Part shown: positions 1,821 through 64,000 of the stretch, one piece after another
Position numbering within the stretch: the first letter of the stretch is position 1
How the letters are laid out: the number at the start of each line of letters is the position of its first letter
Source of the DNA: Candidatus Chazhemtobacterium aquaticus
GTDB lineage: Bacteria; Patescibacteriota; Microgenomatia; UBA1400; Chazhemtobacteraceae
Reading direction: 5' to 3'
Assembly: GCF_009936135.1 (NCBI RefSeq)
Contig: NZ_CP047901.1
Coordinates: forward strand, 216,984 to 280,983
Length of the DNA stretch: 64,000 bases
Position numbers and translations under genes: made by a program
Notes under the pieces: generated by a model
Told to the model about the DNA's origin: nothing
The model's database searches: none
Seen by the model: only the letters and a program-made list of their open reading frames with translations

Positions 1821-2393
1821 CTATCTCTCCACATCCAGCAACCATTCCATCCTACTGACTAAACTGTCATTCGGGTCAATTCTAGCCGCCTTTTCCAACG
1901 CCTCTTTTGCCAACTCACTCTCACCCAGACTCCAATAATCAATGGCCAAATTAAGTAATAAGGATCTAGACCTGGGAGCAATATCCTCATCACTCAATCT
2001 CTTCACCTCATCCAAAAGCTTCGTTTCTGGCCATATCAAGTCTTCAATCTCGCTCGATGCTCCCAAGACAGGGGAGTCCTTACTCATATATTTCTCACCC
2101 AATCGATACTCTTTCTCAGCCACTGTATAGTCAAACCTCTTTGCTGATTCACGTGCCAAATCCCAGTGGGCTAGGGTAGAGTAGGGGAACTGTCCAGTCC
2201 GGTGCTGCTCTTTTCTCAGCTCGTCATTAACTGGAAACAGGTTCAAACTAGCTATAACCATCATAACCAGGACAGGGATCAGACCTACTAGACTTTTAAA
2301 TATAGGTGAGTCTACTAACCCATCAGACTTACCCACCCTCAATCGTCTGCGTTTAGCCGTAATTCTGTTTTTTATGGCCACTCTTCTTTTCAC
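1821..2393 (-). CDS. Hypothetical membrane-anchored protein (N-terminal basic region plus one TM, helical/TPR-like C-terminus)
   Basis: ORF of 190 aa. The start overlaps the valS stop by 4 nt (ATGA-type coupling). No recognisable motifs. Confidence 0.45.
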   Translation of the reverse strand: MKRRVAIKNRITAKRRRLRVGKSDGLVDSPIFKSLVGLIPVLVMMVIASLNLFPVNDELRKEQHRTGQFPYSTLAHWDLARESAKRFDYTVAEKEYRLGEKYMSKDSPVLGASSEIEDLIWPETKLLDEVKRLSDEDIAPRSRSLLLNLAIDYWSLGESELAKEALEKAARIDPNDSLVSRMEWLLDVER

Positions 2394-4495
2394 TTTTTCA
2401 TCATATCATCGTACCCAGGCCACGAACTTGCGATCAGAATCCCTTCCTCCTCGTTCAGATTTTGCCAAACAAACTCAGTCACAAATGGAACAAAGGGGTG
2501 AAGTAACTTCAAAAACACTACTAATCCGTTTTTAAGCTCACCTGCTGATATAACTCCTTCTTTACCTTGTTCAATACACTTATCGCAGTACCAGTGCCAA
2601 AACTCGTTATACACCGTCTCGGCTGCCAAACCAACTTTCAAATCGTCCAGCTGCTTTTCAACCTTAGTTACTACTTTACTAAGGCGCTTCCTGAACTTTT
2701 CATCTCCCGGCGCCTGATCATTATTCTTACCAACATCACTCATCTTCACAAACCTAGCCGCATTCCAGATCTTATTTGCAAAATTACGCATTCCTCTTAT
2801 CGTTTCTTCACCCACATTCTTATCAGTTCCAGGTGTCGAACTCATCACCAAAGCCATGCGTAAAGCGTCAGCACCATACTTATCGATCATGTCGATCGGG
2901 TTAAGCACATTACCCTTTGACTTACTCATCTTCACTCCTTTTTCATCTCGCACTAACCCATGCAAATAAACCTGCTCAAACGGTATCTGGTCAGTCAAAT
3001 AAATCCCCAGCATCAACATCCTCATTACCCAAAATACCAAGATGTCATATGCCGTCTCCATCACCGTAGTCGGATAATAATACTCAAAATCGCCTGGCTT
3101 ATTGGTTTTTAACGTCAACACTGGCCATTGACCCGAGCTAAACCAGGTATCAAAAGTGTCCTCCTCCTGAACAAATCCGTCCCCTGGTTTTGTCTTACTC
3201 ACCACATAATCCTCTCCATTACCATCCTCCTTGTACCACACAGGCATTCTAATTCCCCACACAATCTGCCTACTTACATTCCAGTCGCGGAGATTACTTA
3301 ACCAATGCCTCAGGATTTTTTCTCTTCCCGGACCATGAATCCTGATCTTGTTTTGATCCAGTGCCTCGATCGCCCGTTTCGCCAACGGCTTGACCCTGAT
3401 AAAAAATTGTTTCTTAGGTAATGGCTCAATTGCTCTTCCGCATCGATAACAAGTTCCCACTCGACTCACATAATTCTCATCGACCTTTTCTATCAAACCC
3501 TTTTTCTCAAGCTCCTCAACTACCATCTCTCTCGCTTTGTCTACTTTCTCACCGGCTAACCATCCCCCCAACTCAGTAATCCTACCTTTTTCGTCAATAG
3601 CCTGTCTTTTTGGTAGACCATGTCTCTCTGCCACTTCCCAGTCGTTATGATCATGAGCGGGTGTTAGTTTCACCACGCCTGTGCCAAAATCAGGATCCAC
3701 GAAACTATCTTCAATAATCTCCATTTCCTCACCACTCAATGGATTAATTACTTTTTTTCCGACAAGACCCTTCTTGCTCTCATCATTCGGATTAACAGCC
3801 AAGTGTGTATCTGCAAATATTGGTTCTGGCCTGACTGTCGCCACTACCACAAATTCTTTTGGGTTCTCAACCAGGGGATAGCGGATATAGTACAAAGGAA
3901 CTCTTCTTTCTTCATACTCCACCTCTAAATCCGAGTAGCTTGTTCCACATTTTACACAGTAATTAACCAACTTCTCGTCACGATAAATCAGGCCATCCTT
4001 GTTTAGTTTAATAAAGGTTTCTTGTGCCAGCTCAACAATATCTTTATCAAGAGTAAACTTATATCTACTCCAATCTGCACTTGCTCCTAATCGCTTCATT
4101 TGCTCGATAGCTGTCTGGCCATTCTTCTGAACATAGTCCCACAACATCTCATAAAGCTCCGCTCTAGAAAAATCAAATCTACTTTTACCTTCTTTAGCTA
4201 ATTTTTTTTCAAAAACATACTGCGTCTCAATACCTGCATGATCTGTTCCAGGTAACCACAAGACTGCGTCACCTTTCATTCTGTGGTATCTAACTATGAT
4301 GTCCTCAATCGTCACAAACATGGCGTGACCCACATGCATTGGATCATTAGCATTTGGTGGTGGCATAATCACACAAAACGGCTCCTGACCCCTCTTTTTT
4401 GCCTCTTTTGCCTCGGGAGCCGCAAAAATACCCGACTGCTCCCATTTTCTATATACTTTCTCCTCATTATTTTTAAACTCGTATGTCTTGTCCAT
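2390..4495 (-). CDS. valS: Valine--tRNA ligase (compact class I aaRS, 701 aa)
   Basis: Carries the HIGH-type motif PPPNANDPMHVGHA, GTDHAGIETQ, and the KMSKS motif. It lacks the long C-terminal coiled coil of canonical ValRS. Confidence 0.8.
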   Translation of the reverse strand: MDKTYEFKNNEEKVYRKWEQSGIFAAPEAKEAKKRGQEPFCVIMPPPNANDPMHVGHAMFVTIEDIIVRYHRMKGDAVLWLPGTDHAGIETQYVFEKKLAKEGKSRFDFSRAELYEMLWDYVQKNGQTAIEQMKRLGASADWSRYKFTLDKDIVELAQETFIKLNKDGLIYRDEKLVNYCVKCGTSYSDLEVEYEERRVPLYYIRYPLVENPKEFVVVATVRPEPIFADTHLAVNPNDESKKGLVGKKVINPLSGEEMEIIEDSFVDPDFGTGVVKLTPAHDHNDWEVAERHGLPKRQAIDEKGRITELGGWLAGEKVDKAREMVVEELEKKGLIEKVDENYVSRVGTCYRCGRAIEPLPKKQFFIRVKPLAKRAIEALDQNKIRIHGPGREKILRHWLSNLRDWNVSRQIVWGIRMPVWYKEDGNGEDYVVSKTKPGDGFVQEEDTFDTWFSSGQWPVLTLKTNKPGDFEYYYPTTVMETAYDILVFWVMRMLMLGIYLTDQIPFEQVYLHGLVRDEKGVKMSKSKGNVLNPIDMIDKYGADALRMALVMSSTPGTDKNVGEETIRGMRNFANKIWNAARFVKMSDVGKNNDQAPGDEKFRKRLSKVVTKVEKQLDDLKVGLAAETVYNEFWHWYCDKCIEQGKEGVISAGELKNGLVVFLKLLHPFVPFVTEFVWQNLNEEEGILIASSWPGYDDMMKK

Positions 4496-4549
4496 TTTCG
4501 TTTTGATAAAAAATTATTTAATTTATTTCTTTCTTACTTCATCATATTG

Positions 4550-4620
4550 TACAAACACAAAAAACACGCTACCTGCGTGTTGTGGTTTCCCAAGCTAAAA
4601 AGGAAAGGTACCAACCTCAA
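4550..4620 (-). promoter_or_regulatory. T-box-like antiterminator/terminator core in the valS leader
   Basis: The minus strand reads UUGAGGU-UGGUACC-UUUCC...GGAAA-CCACAA then AACACGC-AGGUA-GCGUGUU followed by UUUUGUGUUUG. This is a UGGNACC bulge flanked by two helices, overlapping a 7-bp terminator stem plus U-tract, about 55 nt upstream of the valS AUG. Confidence 0.45.
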
Positions 4621-4816
4621 CCATACTCAACTCCAGCTGTAACGGGCCTACCCGGAAAGCTCTACTCCCTATCTCAAACAACTAATAGGTTTCTTCTTTC
4701 AGCTATCGGATGACTAGTCCAATCATCGCCGTTACCGCCATTCTACCATAGCCTCCGTTCAAACCGTCTGTCCTTATCGCCTCGCACTCTCTCCGCCAAA
4801 GGCAAAAGATACATAA

Positions 4817-5824
4817 TCAGCCAAAAATATCCAAACCTGGATCAGGATTCAATTCAAACACATCTGCCTCCTTTGGTCTTAATACTGCCGCGGCACCAAT
4901 CATCGCCGCATTATCAGTGCAATACTTGATTTCAGGCACGTACATCTCCACCCCCAACTCATCACATATTTTCTTAATTTTTTTTCTCAGCAGCTTGTTT
5001 GCCGCTACCCCTCCTGCCAAAAGAACACTTTTAGGATGTTTTCCCTTTATTGCCTTTTCAGTTTTCTCAACCAGACTCTCCACTACCGCCTCATTCACCT
5101 CTTTTGCCAACCCTGCTCTATCACTCTCATCTAACTCACCTCTACTTTTTACCTCGCGCAACAACGCCGCCTTAAGACCACTAAAACTCATGTCATATCC
5201 AGACCCACCCTTCAGTGGCCTAGGTAACTTCACTCCAATAGACTTCGCATTTTCGGCCACTCTTTCAATCGAAACACCACCTGGGTAGGGTAGACCTAAG
5301 GCTCTTGCACACTTATCAAAACACTCTCCCGCCGCGTCATCTCGAGTCCCTCCTAACTCAAACCATTCACTCATATTCTCAAGCCAAACCAAATCTGTAT
5401 GACCCCCACTAACCACCAGTCCGACTCCAGGTAGTTTTGGCTCATCATCAATCCAATTTGCCAATAAATGTGCCTGCATATGATTAACCGCCAACAACTT
5501 CTTTTGGTGTACATAAGCTAAGGTTTTTGCCGTTTCCACCCCCACTAGTAAACTACCCATTAGCCCAGGACCATAAGCCACCGCAATCGCCTCCAGGTTT
5601 TCATATTTCAATCCAGCTTTGTTCATCGCCTCCTCTATAACCGATCCAATCACTCTCAACTGTTCTCTCGCTGCCACTTCGGGCACAATGCCACCATATT
5701 TGTTATGCATCTCAGCCGAGCTAGCTGTTACATTTGCTATCACCTCCACACCATTCCCACTCTGTTTCTTTTTCACAACCGCTGCACCAGTTTCGTCGCA
5801 CGTACTTTCTATTGCCAAAATCAT
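4817..5824 (-). CDS. tsaD: tRNA N6-adenosine threonylcarbamoyltransferase TsaD (Kae1/Gcp family)
   Basis: MILAIESTCDETGAAVV, the HxxH metal site and GGVAANKLLR match the family. The start was chosen at the internal Met (aa 15 of the ORF) so it does not overlap the upstream gene. Confidence 0.85.
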   Translation of the reverse strand: MILAIESTCDETGAAVVKKKQSGNGVEVIANVTASSAEMHNKYGGIVPEVAAREQLRVIGSVIEEAMNKAGLKYENLEAIAVAYGPGLMGSLLVGVETAKTLAYVHQKKLLAVNHMQAHLLANWIDDEPKLPGVGLVVSGGHTDLVWLENMSEWFELGGTRDDAAGECFDKCARALGLPYPGGVSIERVAENAKSIGVKLPRPLKGGSGYDMSFSGLKAALLREVKSRGELDESDRAGLAKEVNEAVVESLVEKTEKAIKGKHPKSVLLAGGVAANKLLRKKIKKICDELGVEMYVPEIKYCTDNAAMIGAAAVLRPKEADVFELNPDPGLDIFG

Positions 5825-5826
5825 CT

Positions 5827-7677
5827 TTATTGCCCCCCAGTACCTCTCAGGTATACTGCCTGCCAAGGTCTATAATTACTATAAAAAGTCTCATCCTGAA
5901 GCACCTCTCCATCTCTGGTCACCTTGTATTCAAAACTTGTCTTAGCTCCCCACGCTGCCCAATCAATTTGCTTTATCACTCCCGCCGGTAAGCTTGGATC
6001 GTCTTGATACAACGGTGGTGGGGGAGCCGACTGTCCCCAAACCTTAGGTTCGCCCAACGTCACCTCTCTTCCATCATCAGTTCCATACAACTCAAATACT
6101 AGCGTCCGTTCGGCCTCGTTTACTATCGCTTGAATCAATATATAACCCGGTGTATCGTTCCTAAACTTAAAATCAACACTTGGATCATATACTGTCGCAT
6201 CAATCCCTGGTTTGGAATCCTGTTCATAGTAAGAAACCCGATATGAATGTGGCTTTCTTTCAATTATTGGTAAACCAGCATCTAAAACGGATCTAAATAA
6301 AGTGGTTGACACCTGGCACACCCCACCACCATCTCCAAGCACTGTTCTGCCGCTACTAATTACATAAGCCGGTTTGTATCCAGTGGCTTGTGATACCTCG
6401 CCCAATGTTTGGTTAAACGAAAAAACCTCTCCTGGAGCCACCAAAGTCCCCCCTATTCTTCTTGCGGCCAATGATACGTTATGCACCCTGTTAATTATTG
6501 AATGAAGATAGGTTGACTTACCTCTTCCAATCAACTCCTTAATCCCCATGTTATTAACCTCCGCTGTCGACACTACAGGCTCCTTTTTCTCCACCGGTGT
6601 CTCTACTACAATTTTGTTTTTGCCGTTAAAGCTATCCAACGCCTCCACTAATCTATCCATCAAATCATCCTCTTTTACAGTTATCCCTTCCTTACCAGGG
6701 GCAAACTCAACTACCCTACCATTCTCAAATCTAAATACAGCGTTTTGTGGCTCACGATTAACCCCCTCAGAATACACAGTAACTAGCTCGCTAATTCTGT
6801 CGCGACTAGTTGCATCATCCCCGATTGCAATCATTCCAACCAACTCTTCTTCACCCAACACCCACTCATTATCTTCTAGTTTAACTATCAAACTACCACC
6901 TATTAATTTCTCCGCTTTTGTTATTGCCTTTTTTACCGACTCCTCACTCACCTCAGTTCTCAACTGCTTCACCGGTAAGGTGATTTCTCGATCATCGAGC
7001 CAAGCGCGATGTTCCAATATCATTTGCTTTAATCTATCCTCATCTACCTCCAAACCAGCCTGACCCTGCTCGTACACAATCTCTTTATCCCCACCAGCAG
7101 TTTCAATTCTCAAACTTGGCTTAATCTCTGTCACCTCTATCTCAGCTGATATACTCGCCACTACTGGTAACCACAGATCTTCATCAATTGATACCTCAAG
7201 GGGTAGATTAACCCCCTCAAAAAAACTTCTCTGAGCCTCTCCAAATCGCTCCCAAATATTTCCAGATCTAGCCACCATCCACGCCTGATTTATCGTCAAC
7301 GGAACACTAATTTCAATTCCTAAATTATCATCATTTAGCCTCCATGCACGTTCTTCGTGTCTTATCACCAACTCTCTCTCACCATCTCTCTCTAAACGTG
7401 CCTCTAATACTTTAGCCGCCTGCTCTCCGGTCAAGTTTCCCACCTCAACTCCTGAAACCTGCACTCCCGGCACGATCTTGCCGTTATAAGCAGCAAGATA
7501 TGCCATCACTATTACCAACATCAACACTACTCCAAAAACCACAATTCCAAGACCTTTACTGCCATATCTCACCATTTTCCATAAGTTAATCGCTTTCTTG
7601 TTTAAACCTTTCTTTTTTGGCATGTCCTCAATTGTATCAGTCAGCCGTATCACCGTCTTTTTCTTCGCCTTCATCAT
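5827..7677 (-). CDS. VanW-family membrane-anchored protein
   Basis: N-terminal basic region plus one TM. The central VanW-like block is GEVFSFNQTLGEVSQATGYKPAYVISSGRTVLGDGGGVCQVSTTLF. A C-terminal beta-rich domain follows. Confidence 0.7.
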   Translation of the reverse strand: MMKAKKKTVIRLTDTIEDMPKKKGLNKKAINLWKMVRYGSKGLGIVVFGVVLMLVIVMAYLAAYNGKIVPGVQVSGVEVGNLTGEQAAKVLEARLERDGERELVIRHEERAWRLNDDNLGIEISVPLTINQAWMVARSGNIWERFGEAQRSFFEGVNLPLEVSIDEDLWLPVVASISAEIEVTEIKPSLRIETAGGDKEIVYEQGQAGLEVDEDRLKQMILEHRAWLDDREITLPVKQLRTEVSEESVKKAITKAEKLIGGSLIVKLEDNEWVLGEEELVGMIAIGDDATSRDRISELVTVYSEGVNREPQNAVFRFENGRVVEFAPGKEGITVKEDDLMDRLVEALDSFNGKNKIVVETPVEKKEPVVSTAEVNNMGIKELIGRGKSTYLHSIINRVHNVSLAARRIGGTLVAPGEVFSFNQTLGEVSQATGYKPAYVISSGRTVLGDGGGVCQVSTTLFRSVLDAGLPIIERKPHSYRVSYYEQDSKPGIDATVYDPSVDFKFRNDTPGYILIQAIVNEAERTLVFELYGTDDGREVTLGEPKVWGQSAPPPPLYQDDPSLPAGVIKQIDWAAWGAKTSFEYKVTRDGEVLQDETFYSNYRPWQAVYLRGTGGQ

Positions 7678-28305: not shown

Positions 28306-29160
28306 ATGGCGCCCAAAACCATTATTATCACCGGATGTTCCTCGGGTCTTGGTTACCATACAGCCATTTATCTTGCCCAACAAGACTATCAAGTTTATGC
28401 CTCAGTTCGTCGCAACTCAGATCTTAATCTTTTTACTCACCTTCCCCCCCAACACCAACCCCAACCTTTCTTACTCGATCTGCGTTGGAGCCAATCTAGG
28501 ATTTCAAAAATCATCTCCTCACTACCAACACCACCTGAGGTTCTAATTAACAACGCAGGCTACGGATTCTTTGGTACCCTTGACACCATTTCAGTCGATC
28601 ATCTCCAGCAACAACTCGAAGTTAATCTCTATGGAACCTACAAGGTTATCAAGGCTGTCCTTCCCTCAATGAGGTCTCGTCGAGCCGGATTAATAATAAA
28701 CATCAGCTCCATTCTTGGTTTATTCTCTTTACCAGGCTACGGGCCATACTCAATCTCCAAGTTCTCTATCGAAGCCTTGACCCAGACCTTACGTCACGAA
28801 GAAACACCATTTGGTATCAAGACTGTTTCTCTCAATCCAGGATCATTTAGTACAAATTTCTGGAAAAACAGTCAGCTACCCCGCTTAAACTCAAAGAGAA
28901 CACTTTCTCCTCACCAGCAGTTTAATTCAAACTTAAAAGCATCTTTCGCCAACCCGAGACGTCAACATACACGATCTCACCCTCTCCAAGTTGCCAAAGT
29001 AATTAATCAACTTATCTCCACCCAAAACTATCCTGCCAATGTTCCAATCGGTCTTGACGCCCAGTTACTCTATTATCTCCACCGACTTCTTCCAAGACCA
29101 CTCTTCTTTTGGATTGTTAAAACCATTGCTCACGCCCCCCGTCCTCAACAAAACGCCTAA
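28306..29160 (+). CDS. Short-chain dehydrogenase/reductase (SDR) family oxidoreductase
   Basis: TGCSSGLG, NNAG and the catalytic YxxxK block (YSISK) are present. Confidence 0.8.
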   Translation: MAPKTIIITGCSSGLGYHTAIYLAQQDYQVYASVRRNSDLNLFTHLPPQHQPQPFLLDLRWSQSRISKIISSLPTPPEVLINNAGYGFFGTLDTISVDHLQQQLEVNLYGTYKVIKAVLPSMRSRRAGLIINISSILGLFSLPGYGPYSISKFSIEALTQTLRHEETPFGIKTVSLNPGSFSTNFWKNSQLPRLNSKRTLSPHQQFNSNLKASFANPRRQHTRSHPLQVAKVINQLISTQNYPANVPIGLDAQLLYYLHRLLPRPLFFWIVKTIAHAPRPQQNA

Positions 29161-30596
29161 CTCTTCAGTCTCGGAAACAACTGCTCACCTTTAACAACCT
29201 GTTTATTTCCAAAAATCTTCATTATTTTCTCTGCCGTTTCTGGCATAAACGGCTGCAGACTAACACCGATGTTCCTTATTCTTAACACAATCTCTTCCAA
29301 TGCAAAATTCTTATCCCTACCACTCAACTTCCAAATCTCCTTTTGATTAATCAAAGCATTTGTCTGCCTAACCTCATCCCAAATTATATTTATCGCCTTA
29401 TCAAACTCATAACCATCTAAGGCTTTTGTAATCAAATCATTCCTTCCTTCCCACTTTAGAATCTTATCTTCATCAATTTTAATCTCCAGTCCGTCACACA
29501 TCGCCATCGTTCGCGCAATCAAGTTTCCCAAGCCATTCGCCAAATCATTCATATAGTTCTCCTCAAAACGCTCCTGTGTAAAATCGCTATCGTCAAATGG
29601 ATTTATTTTGGCCAGCAGAAAATATCTAACCGCATCCGTTCCGTACTTATCTGTATACTCAATCGGATTAACCACATTGCCAAGCGATTTACTTATCTTT
29701 TGCCCCTGCGAAGTTATAAAACCGTTAATTAAAATCTGTTTGCTATTATCAAGGTCAGCCGCCATCAACATAGCCTGCCACATCGCCGCTTGCTGTCTCA
29801 AGTTATCCTTGCCCGCAATTTGAAACCCTGGCCACCACTGACTGTAATTTTCTAAATCATCAGGCCAGCCTAATGTCGAAACATAATTGACCAAAGCATC
29901 AAACCATACATACATTACCTGGCTATCATCACCAGGAACCGGCACACCCCAAGGCATTTTTTCTCTTACTCTGGAAATAGAAAAATCACTAAGCCCGCCT
30001 TCTACAAAATTTCTTATTTCTTTAAGTCGATTAGCTGGTACCACAAATTCACCACGCTCCTTATACAAACTCAATAGCCGTTCCTGAAAAGCCGAAAACT
30101 TAAAAAAATAATTTTCCTCTTCGATTACTTCTAACTCTTTGTTCGGGTGAATTGGACATCTACCATTTTCCAACTCAGAATCTTGTTTCTCAAGCTCGCA
30201 ACCAACACAATACTTAACCCGATAATTTTTTTTGTAAATATATCCATTTTCTTCCACCCTTCGCCAAAACTCCTGAGCCGCCATCCGGTGGTGCTGATCT
30301 GTGGTTCTGATAAACTTGTCATAAGACAAATTCAACGCTGACCTTAACAGCTCAAATTTGCCTGCATACTCATCAACATATTTCTGAGGATCCATTTTTC
30401 TTGCAAGCGCCATCTGGAAAATTTTTTGCCCGTGTTCATCCGTCCCGGTATTAAAAAATACCCTTTCCCCCAATAAACGATGATATCTGGCTAAAACATC
30501 AGCTCTCACTATCTCTAAGGCAAAACCGATATGCGGCTCTGCGTTTACATAAGGTAGAGTCGTTGAAATATAATATCCTCGCTTCATTCTCCTCAT
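29157..30596 (-). CDS. metG: Methionine--tRNA ligase (short form)
   Basis: PYVNAEPHIGFA (HIGH-like), a CxxC...CP zinc knuckle and KISKSLGN (KMSKS) are present. Confidence 0.85.
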   Translation of the reverse strand: MRRMKRGYYISTTLPYVNAEPHIGFALEIVRADVLARYHRLLGERVFFNTGTDEHGQKIFQMALARKMDPQKYVDEYAGKFELLRSALNLSYDKFIRTTDQHHRMAAQEFWRRVEENGYIYKKNYRVKYCVGCELEKQDSELENGRCPIHPNKELEVIEEENYFFKFSAFQERLLSLYKERGEFVVPANRLKEIRNFVEGGLSDFSISRVREKMPWGVPVPGDDSQVMYVWFDALVNYVSTLGWPDDLENYSQWWPGFQIAGKDNLRQQAAMWQAMLMAADLDNSKQILINGFITSQGQKISKSLGNVVNPIEYTDKYGTDAVRYFLLAKINPFDDSDFTQERFEENYMNDLANGLGNLIARTMAMCDGLEIKIDEDKILKWEGRNDLITKALDGYEFDKAINIIWDEVRQTNALINQKEIWKLSGRDKNFALEEIVLRIRNIGVSLQPFMPETAEKIMKIFGNKQVVKGEQLFPRLKS

Positions 30597-61230: not shown

Positions 61231-62568
61231 ATGTCAGACCCAATTATGGCCCGCACTGAATTTGCGGCCGCACTAAATCAAATTTGTACTGAACGAGGCA
61301 TTGAGCCCTCTGCTGTTCTCAACAGCCTTAAACAAGCCTTACTTGCTGCTTTTCGTAAAGATTACCCTCAAATTTACGCCCAGTACGAGATAGGTGAAGA
61401 AACAGAGAGCCAGGAAGAACTTTCCCCTCCTCAAACGAGTCTCTCGGTCGTTCTAGATGACCAAACCGGTGAGTTCAAAATCATCACCACCGACCCCAAA
61501 ACCAAAAAGGATAAAGACATAACCCCTCCTGGCTTTGGTCGCATCGCCGCCCAAACAGCCAAACAAGTCATCCTTCAACAAGTCAGAGAAGCAGAAAAAT
61601 CATCCATTATCGACGAATATCGCTCTCGTTTAGGTGAGCTTATTACAGCCCAGGTTCTCCGTCTTGACGGTAAAAACGTCATTCTCGACATTGGTCGAGG
61701 CCAAGGAGTTATGCCTCCCGAGGAGCAAATCCGTGGCGAATTCTACAGGCTCAACTCTCGAATAGCCGTTGTCATTGCGGATATTAGAGACACTTTCCGT
61801 GGTGAATCAGTAGTTGTTTCTCGCTCCGACCCGCGACTGGTAACCCAACTCTTTGCTCGCGAAGTTCCCGAGGTTGGAACTGGAGTTGTTGTCATTGAAA
61901 AAATCGCTAGAGACCCCGGGGTACGAACCAAGGTAGCCGTCAAATCAACTCAAGAAGGAGTCGACCCGGTCGGTTCCTGTGTTGGACAAAAAGGAGTCAG
62001 GGTCCAAGCTGTTATCAACGAGTTAAACGGTGAAAGGGTTGATATAATCCAATACTCTCAAGATCCACAGGAATTTATCTCAGCCGCCCTCTCACCTGCA
62101 GAGAATCTCCAAATTACTCTCAATGAAACCAAAAAAACCGCTACAGTCTCTGTTCCTGAAGACCAGCTTTCGCTTGCTATTGGTCGTTCGGGACAGAATG
62201 TCAAACTAGCCGCTAAACTAACCGGATATAAAATCAAAGTTCAGGCAGGCGACAAATCAACCATTCAAGTTACCGGTAATGAAGAATATGAAATCGATCT
62301 GTTAGACCTTGATACCAAAACCAGAAACAAACTTGTGGAAGCTGGGATAGTCTTACTTGAGCAAATTATGGGTGATAATTTAGAGCGTCTTAAGGAAGTA
62401 AAGGGCATTGGCTCAAAAACCATCACCGAAATCAAAAACAAACTTGCTACCTACCAACAATCGGACTCACCAGAAGGATCTCAATCAGACGAAGGCAGCT
62501 CCCAGTCAGACACTATCGACACCTCAACACCTCAGGACAGCTCTTCCATGACCAACTCGTCCAAGTAA
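61231..62568 (+). CDS. nusA: Transcription termination/antitermination factor NusA
   Basis: NusA N-terminal domain, S1 domain ([16 protein letters not shown]) and two KH domains ([18 protein letters not shown]...) are present. Confidence 0.9.
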
Positions 62569-62615
62569 ACTGACTAGCTCTCTTCTGTTATTACTCATTA
62601 CCGCTTTTAACCCGC

Positions 62616-64000
62616 ATGGATGACAAAACATCTTCTCCTTTGCGATCTCGTCCACCGATCATCGCCGTTTTGGGTCACGTGGATCATGGTAAAACCTCTT
62701 TACTAGATGCCATCAGAAGTACCAACGTTCAAGCTGGAGAAACAGGCGGAATTACCCAACACATAGGTGCCTATCAAATTGTCTACAACCAACATCCACT
62801 AACCTTTATTGACACTCCAGGACACGCTGCCTTTACCTCTATGCGCGCCCGTGGCGGACAAACGGCCGATCTTGCAATTTTAGTAGTAGCTGCTGACGAT
62901 GGTGTCATGCCTCAGACTAAAGAATCTCTTGCCCACATAAACTCCGCCAACATCCCCTATATTGTTGCTCTAAACAAGATTGATCTTCCCCAGGCCCAGC
63001 CAGATAGAGTTAAAACTCAATTAGTTGAAGCCGGTGTCTTGGTGGAGGGCTATGGTGGTAATGTTCCCATTGTCGAAGTCTCAGCCACCCGCAAAACCAA
63101 TCTAGACCTATTATTAGAAAACCTTCTTCTCTTAGCTGAGCTCCAAGAGCTTAAGGCTGATCCCGAAGGTACTCTTGAAGCCATTGTCATTGAATCAACC
63201 CTCGATAAACACCAGGGACCCTTAGCCACGGTTATTCTTAAGAACGGCTCACTGGCTCCCGGCCAAGATATCACCACTGTTCCCAACAAACCCCAAGAGA
63301 CACCTCTCTCAGGTCGTGTTCGAGCCCTTACCGATTGGCAGGGACAACCTGTCCCCCAAGCCATACCCTCGACTCCCTGTCGTATCTTAGGTTTCTCGCA
63401 AGTGCCACCAGTCGGCTCCATAATCACCCATAAACACTCTCTTTCCCAGTTCTCAACCAAAACCCAACATATCACCCAAACCGAAATCAACTCTCCATCA
63501 TCTGATCAGTCACAACAAGGTATTCTCTTAAAAACTGATGTGGTTGGTACTCTCGAAGCCATTAGCCACAATTTGCCTGAGAAAATCCACCTCGTCCACG
63601 CCGGTGCCGGTGCAATTTCCGAATCAGATATCCTTCTTGCCCAAACCTCTTCTGTCCCTGTCTACGGTTTTCGTACCAAACCAACTCCGTCGGCTAAAAA
63701 ACTAGCCCAAATCGAACACATTCCCATTCACACCTTTGACACCATTTATGATCTACTTGATCACCTGCAACTTCTCTCAACCAAAACCATCTCAAAACAC
63801 CAACAAGAAACCATAAATGGTCAAGCCACCATCATTAAGATATTTAACTTACCCCAATCAACTGTTTTCGGTTGTAAATCTGATTCAGGAGTAATCAAAA
63901 CCGGAGATCAGATTCACCTAAAAAGATCAGATGGATCAAGCAAGAACGCACGCATAACCTCTCTCAAGATTGGTTCAAAAGACGTCTCAAAAGTTTCTCC
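62616..64000 (+). CDS. infB: Translation initiation factor IF-2 (5' part; starts directly with the G domain, continues past the window end)
   Basis: [39 protein letters not shown] and NKIDLP match IF-2. There is no stop before 64000. Confidence 0.9.

Follow-up and report, generated by a model that had tools for sequence, protein, structure and literature searches.

Introduction

The closest described relatives of the element reported here are the ileS T-boxes with an ultrashort Stem I (US, class II) of the actinobacteria M. tuberculosis, M. smegmatis and Nocardia farcinica. This class is found on ileS only, responds to tRNA-Ile, is confined to Actinobacteria and controls translation via sequestration of the Shine-Dalgarno sequence (bioRxiv 10.1101/2023.02.28.530422; PMC11297988). 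Here we analyse the leader of valS, which encodes valyl-tRNA synthetase (ValRS), in a 64-kb stretch of the patescibacterium Candidatus Chazhemtobacterium aquaticus (contig NZ_CP047901.1, positions 216,984 to 280,983). This whole stretch is referred to as the window and all coordinates are positions within it. The leader is almost certainly a real T-box homologue. It probably functions as a tRNA-Val-responsive transcription attenuator of valS, with a reduced architecture.

T-boxes that act on transcription are thought to need fast capture of the tRNA via an elbow platform (PMC7583486), and the combination of an ultrashort Stem I with an intrinsic terminator is treated as unfavourable in the literature. 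The T-box bulge is 7 nucleotides (nt) long with UGGN fixed beside helix A1, an F-box and a 21-nt pseudoknot have been described, the S-turn of Stem II imposes a “C rule” on the third codon position, and Stem III has been called “indispensable for function” (PMC7583486). The role of the RAG motif has been described as well (PMC11297988), and Stem II is held in the literature to be essential when Stem I is truncated. Short Stem I forms were sought for the TBDB only in Actinobacteria or among the matches to the Rfam T-box model RF00230 (PMC7778990). A full-text literature search returned no paper joining T-boxes with Patescibacteria, the candidate phyla radiation (CPR), Microgenomates or Saccharibacteria; its coverage was incomplete and this is absence of evidence only.

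Results

The gap between tsaD and valS on the minus strand spans 4496-4816, exactly 321 nt. It was originally predicted to be an unusually long untranslated gap harbouring a T-box attenuator for valS, and it is indeed the second largest of the 53 intergenic gaps in the window (median 29 nt). We surveyed 160 valS loci from genomes and metagenomes (cited below by L numbers) and built a covariance model, R1, from the leaders of L005, L095, L020, L069 and L025. The window and its near-twin L131 were excluded from the model. When both strands of the window were searched, R1 gave a single significant match at 4598-4730 on the minus strand (38.8 bits, E=1.9e-8), while the next-best match had E=1.6. 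The significance of the leader lies in the whole architecture, as seen from the R1 match, and not in the UGGNACC motif, which has 20 occurrences in the window where 24 are expected and is not significant alone. With the leader found by a model made from relatives only, and with Stem I and the specifier placed as described below, the proposed T-box attenuator gained clear support.

The element as a whole covers 4552-4733 on the minus strand and lies directly upstream of an aminoacyl-tRNA synthetase (aaRS) gene on the same strand, where T-boxes are located. Its parts and the spacer that follows are listed in the order of transcription.

4702-4729, minus strand: kink-turn (K-turn)-like base and ultrashort Stem I, GC-GAU-GA-UUGGA-CUAGUCA-UCCGA-UA-GC
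4711-4717, minus strand: specifier loop CUAGUCA, 7 nt, with the Val codon GUC at 4714-4712 and the conserved purine A4711
4655-4700, minus strand: Stem II with S-turn, lower helix GAAAG/CUUUC at 4700-4696/4659-4655
4635-4654, minus strand: Stem IIA/B pseudoknot, CGG-GUA-GGC-CCG-UUACA-GCU, with F-box CCGUUA at 4645-4640
4622-4634, minus strand: linker GGAGUUGAGUAUG, 13 nt, with the RAG motif as GAG at 4628-4626
4579-4621, minus strand: antiterminator (discriminator) of helix A1, bulge and helix A2, checked against 14 leaders
4552-4581, minus strand: intrinsic terminator AACACGC-AGGUA-GCGUGUU plus U-tract UUUUGUGUUUG, stem at 4581-4563, from a terminator scan
4496-4551, minus strand: AT-rich spacer from the terminator to the valS start codon, fast-evolving relative to L131

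The best genome matches of the window ValS are metagenome-assembled genomes at 61-63% identity, and the named relatives belong to Pacebacteria, Collierbacteria, Woesebacteria and Chisholmbacteria. A subset of the 160 loci carries TGGTACC 47-185 nt upstream of valS, with N=T in every case. These leaders are obvious T-boxes (AGGUGGUACCGC followed by a terminator) and have in common a small hairpin with a 7-nt loop, YYAGUCA. R1 recovered 14 of the 160 loci. The leader of L124 was missed at E<=0.1 and was added by eye, so the family is larger than the 14 model matches.

Stem I of the window is a 5-bp helix, UUGGA/UCCGA (4722-4718/4710-4706), and the codon in its loop agrees with the gene downstream. 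GUC also obeys the “C rule” for the third codon position (PMC7583486). The leader thus combines a K-turn base with a specifier that fits the regulated gene and has a purine after it. When 14 leaders were aligned without gaps over 28 columns, the only invariant columns were the G, U, C and A of the loop, and seven of seven Stem I pairs showed compensatory changes. Paired cells make up 88% of this alignment compared to 35-42% in slid controls, and the observed score was reached by 0 of 500 shuffles. It had been proposed to fold Stem I by hand and to look for a GUN codon with a following purine and for a distal AG bulge or distal loop. The codon and purine were found but the distal features were not: Stem I ends in the 7-nt loop, and the AG bulge, the distal loop and the double T-loop platform for the tRNA elbow are absent.

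The S-turn of Stem II is formed by the strands AAGAAA (4695-4690) and GAGUAGAG (4667-4660), and above it the upper helix CCUAU/AUAGG (4689-4685/4672-4668) carries an apical loop of 12 nt. The GAA...AGUAGA signature is conserved across the family and in the relatives it aligns with the Stem II S-turn of RF00230. All three lower-helix pairs that were counted show compensatory changes. Downstream of Stem II, IIA pairs 4654-4652 with 4645-4643, and in our own parse IIB is proposed to pair 4648-4646 with 4637-4635. CCGUUA is contained in CGGGUAGGCCCGUUACAGCU, and the equivalent segment of the relatives aligns with the IIA element and CCGUUA of RF00230. CGGGNARGCCCGUNAYAGC is common to the window, L025, L043, L026, L110, L151 and L124. 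As the IIA/B pairs are nearly invariant they give no covariation signal. Both the Stem II S-turn (GAA/AGUA) and the IIA/B element with its F-box are thus found in the leader, and RAG...AUG on the 5′ side of helix A1 is kept in all family members.

In the antiterminator, helix A1 is formed by GUUGAGGU/ACCACAAC (4621-4614/4586-4579) with an internal A4617.A4583 mismatch, and helix A2 by UUCC/GGAA (4605-4602/4590-4587) with an 11-nt loop. Between them lies the bulge UGGUACCU (4613-4606), of which UGGU (4613-4610) is proposed to pair with the 3′ ACCA of the tRNA. The strings on which the original prediction was based were all located on the minus strand: UUGAGGU at 4620-4614, UGGUACC at 4613-4607, UUUCC at 4606-4602, the 11-nt loop at 4601-4591, GGAAA at 4590-4586 and CCACAA at 4585-4580. 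The terminator AACACGC/AGGUA/GCGUGUU (4581-4563) with its U-run was found independently by the terminator scan. The bulge, described as a 7-nt UGGNACC flanked by two helices, is effectively 8 nt long (UGGUACC+U) because A4586 cannot sit in both helices. UGGU abuts A1 provided that U4614 pairs with A4586. The N of UGGN is U in 14 of 14 leaders. The discriminator base of bacterial tRNA-Val is A73, and a U is what would be expected at this position since it would pair with A73. An explicit parse of the 14 leaders gave eight distinct A2 sequences, all of them complementary.

Antiterminator and terminator had been predicted to exclude each other through the 3′ strand of A1. Their overlap is 2 nt in the parse given then and 3 nt (AAC, 4581-4579) once the pair G4621-C4579 is counted. 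The mutually exclusive layout is thus present but slim, and it is kept in two distant lineages. The computed energies are -6.5 kcal/mol for the antiterminator and -9.1 kcal/mol for the terminator of the window, and -13.8 and -24.8 kcal/mol for the corresponding states of L143. In T-boxes the terminator is usually the stabler of the two and the antiterminator depends on the tRNA; the two structures of the window exclude each other and the terminator is the more stable one. An alternative “register-shift” OFF helix, pairing UGG with CCRC, appears in the minimum free energy (MFE) structures of L143 and L138. It is worth only ~1 kcal/mol in the window and was kept as an idea only.

Across the whole-family structure of 14 leaders 94% of cells are paired compared to 32-56% when slid, and 15 of 18 pairs show compensatory changes, with the reservation that this alignment was fitted to the model and leans towards it. 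A MAFFT alignment of whole leaders misplaced L043 and L026, and module alignments and model-based alignments were used instead. By MFE the 321-nt gap does not fold more stably than shuffled sequence (z=-0.43). In MFE folds of the discriminator, local pairings that are not conserved are preferred, and energy alone can therefore not place the structure.

Two comparisons bear on the conservation of the leader. The first is with L131, whose ValS is 96% identical to that of the window. There are 0 changes across the 120 nt of 4552-4671, terminator included. The third codon positions of valS differ by 10.7%, and the spacer 4496-4551 has 4 substitutions and 1 indel in 56 nt (8.9%). Within the element, the changes in L131 lie in the apical loop of Stem II, and in the upper helix of Stem II one U-A pair is changed to U.G. 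The second comparison is with L143 and L138, whose ValS is only 57% identical to that of the window. Their discriminator reads GUUGAGG, UGGUAUCU, A2 and CCGCAAC, followed by ACGC-loop-GCGUGUU and a U-run. As in the window, A1 has a purine-purine mismatch at this position, the bulge is 8 nt long with an extra 3′ U, and AAC forms the overlap. The terminator stem AACACGC/GCGUGUU is identical, whereas the A2 helices and the terminator loops are entirely different. From these sequences, the odd 3′ half of the window leader appears to be conserved rather than decayed.

The leader is missing in other close relatives that keep the gene order. In L081, L002 and L146, where ~260 nt upstream of valS was examined, tsaD and valS are ~12 nt apart and there is no terminator between them. 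The hairpin in the window is therefore not simply or necessarily the terminator of tsaD. The pattern suggests patchy insertion or loss of the leader, with apparently repeated gain or loss of the T-box while the synteny was conserved.

The proposed mechanism is as follows. The leader RNA would run from ~4733 to 4552 on the minus strand, and the Stem I on its K-turn would present GUC and the following A in the 7-nt terminal loop. By analogy with the solved ileS T-boxes, the S-turn of Stem II and the IIA/B pseudoknot may form a groove that binds the anticodon. Uncharged tRNA-Val (anticodon GAC, 3′ ACCA) would pair with both GUC and UGGU and thereby stabilise the weak antiterminator helices A1 and A2. 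As the 3′ strand of A1 would then take up AAC, the base of the terminator stem, the terminator would be reduced to 4 bp and separated from the U-tract by 3 nt, and RNA polymerase would read through into valS. Charged tRNA-Val could not stabilise the antiterminator, in which case the 7-bp terminator would form and transcription would stop.

The genes around the leader and a candidate promoter are listed below.

4817-5866, minus strand: tsaD, upstream neighbour of the gap, from the open reading frame (ORF) table
2390-4495, minus strand: valS, the gene proposed to be regulated, 701 aa, Pfam tRNA-synt_1 (6e-119) and Anticodon_1
1821-2393, minus strand: gene for a TPR protein of 190 aa, downstream of valS and overlapping the valS stop by 4 nt
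4740-4748, minus strand: candidate extended -10 promoter element TGGTAGAAT, proposed from the sequence

The product of valS in the window is a short ValRS of 701 aa. Because the start of the TPR gene overlaps the valS stop, the TPR gene would be co-regulated by the leader. From the candidate promoter element the transcript start would fall at ~4733, which leaves a few nt to the K-turn. At the position equivalent to this -10 box L131 carries TGGTAAAAT, and in L005, L019, L020, L069, L025, L143, L138 and L124 TGnTAnAAT-like boxes precede the K-turn by 8-12 nt. The element at 4740-4748 was not reported by a promoter scan in which a -35 box is required.

A hairpin, CUUUUGCCUU...GAGGCGAUAAG, is predicted at 4773-4808 on the minus strand, after the tsaD stop and before the putative promoter. 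It lacks a U-tract and is kept in L131. It was not noticed upstream of the relatives that carry a T-box, although no search was aimed at it. A leader peptide or small ORF in the gap was rejected, as the ORFs contained there are at most 43 aa long, mostly have non-ATG starts and overlap the conserved RNA. Among the Rfam matches, isrK (4559-4637, sub-threshold at 23 bits against a gathering score of 50) was rejected since it rests on the terminator and U-run, and the matches to sroH and sR38 were regarded as noise.

The only other aaRS found in the window is MetRS (29157-30596, minus strand), with an upstream gap of 23 nt. It has no T-box-like match and R1 finds no other T-box in the window, so the leader is specific to valS within the window. 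NusA is also encoded there (61231-62568), which we count in favour of attenuation. The largest intergenic gap of the window, 62569-63049 (481 nt), lies downstream of nusA and has no Rfam match at the gathering score.

The leaders of the relatives vary in their modules. Both Stem II and IIA/B are present in the window, Stem II alone in L143, and neither of them in L138 and L092. In the latter two (L092:1873-1990 and L138:1878-2000), the leader consists of a K-turn, a 5-bp Stem I with the GUC-A loop, a linker and the discriminator with terminator, ~85 nt in total. The linker is unstructured, 19-23 nt long and contains RAG. Stem II, IIA/B, Stem III and the distal Stem I are all absent from these two. 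The valS T-box of L124 (1808-1990) has the GUC-A loop, an extra hairpin, the S-turn, IIA/B, GAG and the discriminator UAGG-UGGUACC-UUCUG..CAGAA-CCU. In its terminator the T-box sequence itself (AGGUGGUACC) is paired with GGUAACACCU, followed by seven U. Long AU-rich repeat-like insertions of the UUAUUAAC type are seen in Stem II as well as at the Stem III position in the T-box leaders of L110 (1508-1830), L151 (1160-1420) and L045 (600-870). These leaders lie 200-430 nt upstream of the valS match, and another small ORF or an extended 5′ region may lie in between. The valS T-box of L019 (2816-2960) has an insertion of ~85 nt with several hairpins inside helix A2, before the 3′ strand of A1 and the terminator.

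Discussion

Several results weigh against a functional T-box attenuator at valS. RF00230, which was the check suggested in the original prediction, did not match anything in the window at the gathering score (93 bits), nor at E<=10 on 4400-4900; L131, L143, L138, L092 and L095 had no match either. Only 10 of 14 positions of the T-box sequence match (GAGGUUGGUACCUUU vs AGGGUGGNACCGCG), the bulge is 8 nt long instead of 7, and A2 is rich in A and U and has no terminal G.U pair. The overlap of antiterminator and terminator is limited to 3 nt, and RNAfold prefers to pair the 5′ strand of A1 locally in other ways. Stem III is absent, as the 13 nt between IIA/B and A1 (4634-4622) do not allow a hairpin. 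The 3′ dinucleotide of the K-turn (in the region 4702-4705) reads UA instead of the GA of the relatives both in the window and in L131, a change that would potentially swap the second sheared A.G pair for an A-U pair. Finally, no tRNA-Val gene is found in the window, which has tRNA-Cys only, or in the 160 loci, for which Aragorn gave one tRNA, a tRNA-Met, possibly an undercount.

The silence of RF00230 is put into perspective by the relatives. When aligned end to end, L043, L025, L026, L069 and L020 score 48.2, 40.9, 36.0, 28.7 and 25.8 bits with E-values from 1.5e-7 to 0.08, all below the gathering score. In these five alignments ~70 distal Stem I positions are deleted and collapsed to 2-3 nt, and in L043 and L025 Stem III is deleted as well. 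The original prediction was said to fail if there were neither a covariance-model match nor a Stem I with specifier. The first of these was indeed the outcome with RF00230, but a Stem I and specifier are present in the ultrashort form.

The deviations could also be read as signs of a decaying T-box relic that no longer responds to tRNA and whose terminator attenuates transcription between tsaD and valS partially and constitutively. The 8-nt bulge, the UA for GA in the K-turn, the weak AU-rich A2, the 3-nt overlap and the missing Stem III would fit with decay, as would the lack of any RF00230 score and the clear loss of the leader from many related genomes. We nevertheless consider a relic unlikely. 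The same odd discriminator is kept in L143 and L138 at 57% ValS identity even though A2 and the terminator loop differ completely, and 0 substitutions in 120 nt compared to L131 stand against changes of 9-11% in the flanking spacer and at synonymous sites. Moreover, GUCA and UGGU are intact.

It is very improbable that the T-box acts mainly on translation or mRNA stability like the actinobacterial short Stem I class. In the window the AUG is preceded, at a distance of 56 nt, by a canonical hairpin and U-tract, every family member has a hairpin with a U-run after it, and the spacer of the window is unconserved and unstructured, with no Shine-Dalgarno pairing with the discriminator. What speaks for such a mode of action is that all ultrashort Stem I T-boxes described so far are translational (bioRxiv 10.1101/2023.02.28.530422; PMC7583486), that the U-run abuts the AUG in L043, L026 and L138, and that AAGGAG lies inside the terminator stem of L043. 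A chance UGGUACC beside an ordinary tsaD/valS boundary terminator, with no riboswitch at all, would agree with the motif not being enriched, the missing Rfam T-box match and the unremarkable fold energy, but is hardly credible given that the model made from relatives alone matches at E~2e-8, that specifier hairpin, S-turn, F-box and discriminator are common to the relatives with covariation, and that the tsaD-valS gap of the relatives without a T-box is 12 nt and free of a terminator.

We therefore favour a tRNA-Val-responsive attenuator. Beyond this locus, it is possible, although somewhat less than probable, that the Patescibacteria (CPR) carry an uncatalogued class of transcription-attenuating T-boxes that lacks the elbow platform and Stem III, has the 8-nt bulge and 3-nt overlap, and in L092 and L138 dispenses even with Stem II. 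If functional, such leaders would contradict two parts of the current view, namely that a long Stem I is required in T-boxes under kinetic (transcriptional) control and that no T-box can do without Stem III. They would also be the smallest among natural riboswitches that sense tRNA, with the leaders of L092 and L138 as the smallest natural T-boxes. The known range of T-box regulation would come to include the candidate phyla radiation. A whole T-box lineage escapes the standard Rfam model, and CPR riboswitch censuses are therefore underestimates. The natural series of the window, L143 and L138/L092 offers a ready-made deletion set for what a minimal T-box needs, and a small modular tRNA sensor may be of interest for engineering.

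Compared to the canonical transcriptional T-boxes (RF00230; Bacillus subtilis tyrS and glyQS), the window leader has the same place in the 5′ leader of an aaRS gene, the K-turn at the base of Stem I, a codon followed by a purine, the S-turn of Stem II, the F-box, the UGGNACC bulge between A1 and A2, and an antiterminator weaker than the terminator with its U-tract. Unlike these, it is without Stem III, and its Stem I is ~70 nt shorter, the specifier internal loop, AG bulge and distal loop being absent. It matches the T-box sequence at 10 of 14 positions, has an 8-nt bulge and an A.A mismatch in A1, and is not detected by RF00230. Its terminator shares 3 nt with the antiterminator instead of most of the antiterminator 3′ strand.

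The other patescibacterial valS leaders (L005, L095, L092, L019, L020, L069, L025, L043, L026, L110, L151, L124, L143 and L138) precede the same gene as in the window, have the GUC-A loop and N=U, end in a hairpin with U-run and often share the tsaD-valS synteny. The discriminator and terminator of L143 and L138 match those of the window almost nucleotide for nucleotide. Most of the leaders differ from the window in having the canonical AGGUGGUACCGC, a 7-nt bulge and a terminator that overlaps the whole 3′ strand of A1. Their modules vary: IIA/B is missing from some, and long insertions or a Stem III occur in L110, L151 and L026.

From the US class, the closest one described, the window leader is set apart by its GUC (Val) specifier, its association with valS in Patescibacteria, its intrinsic terminator 56 nt before the start codon, the lack of Stem III and the 8-nt bulge. 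With this class it has in common the short Stem I that carries the specifier in its terminal loop and has no distal platform for the tRNA elbow, the Stem II with S-turn and the IIA/B with F-box directly after it, the RAG motif, the UGGN bulge and the C in the third codon position.

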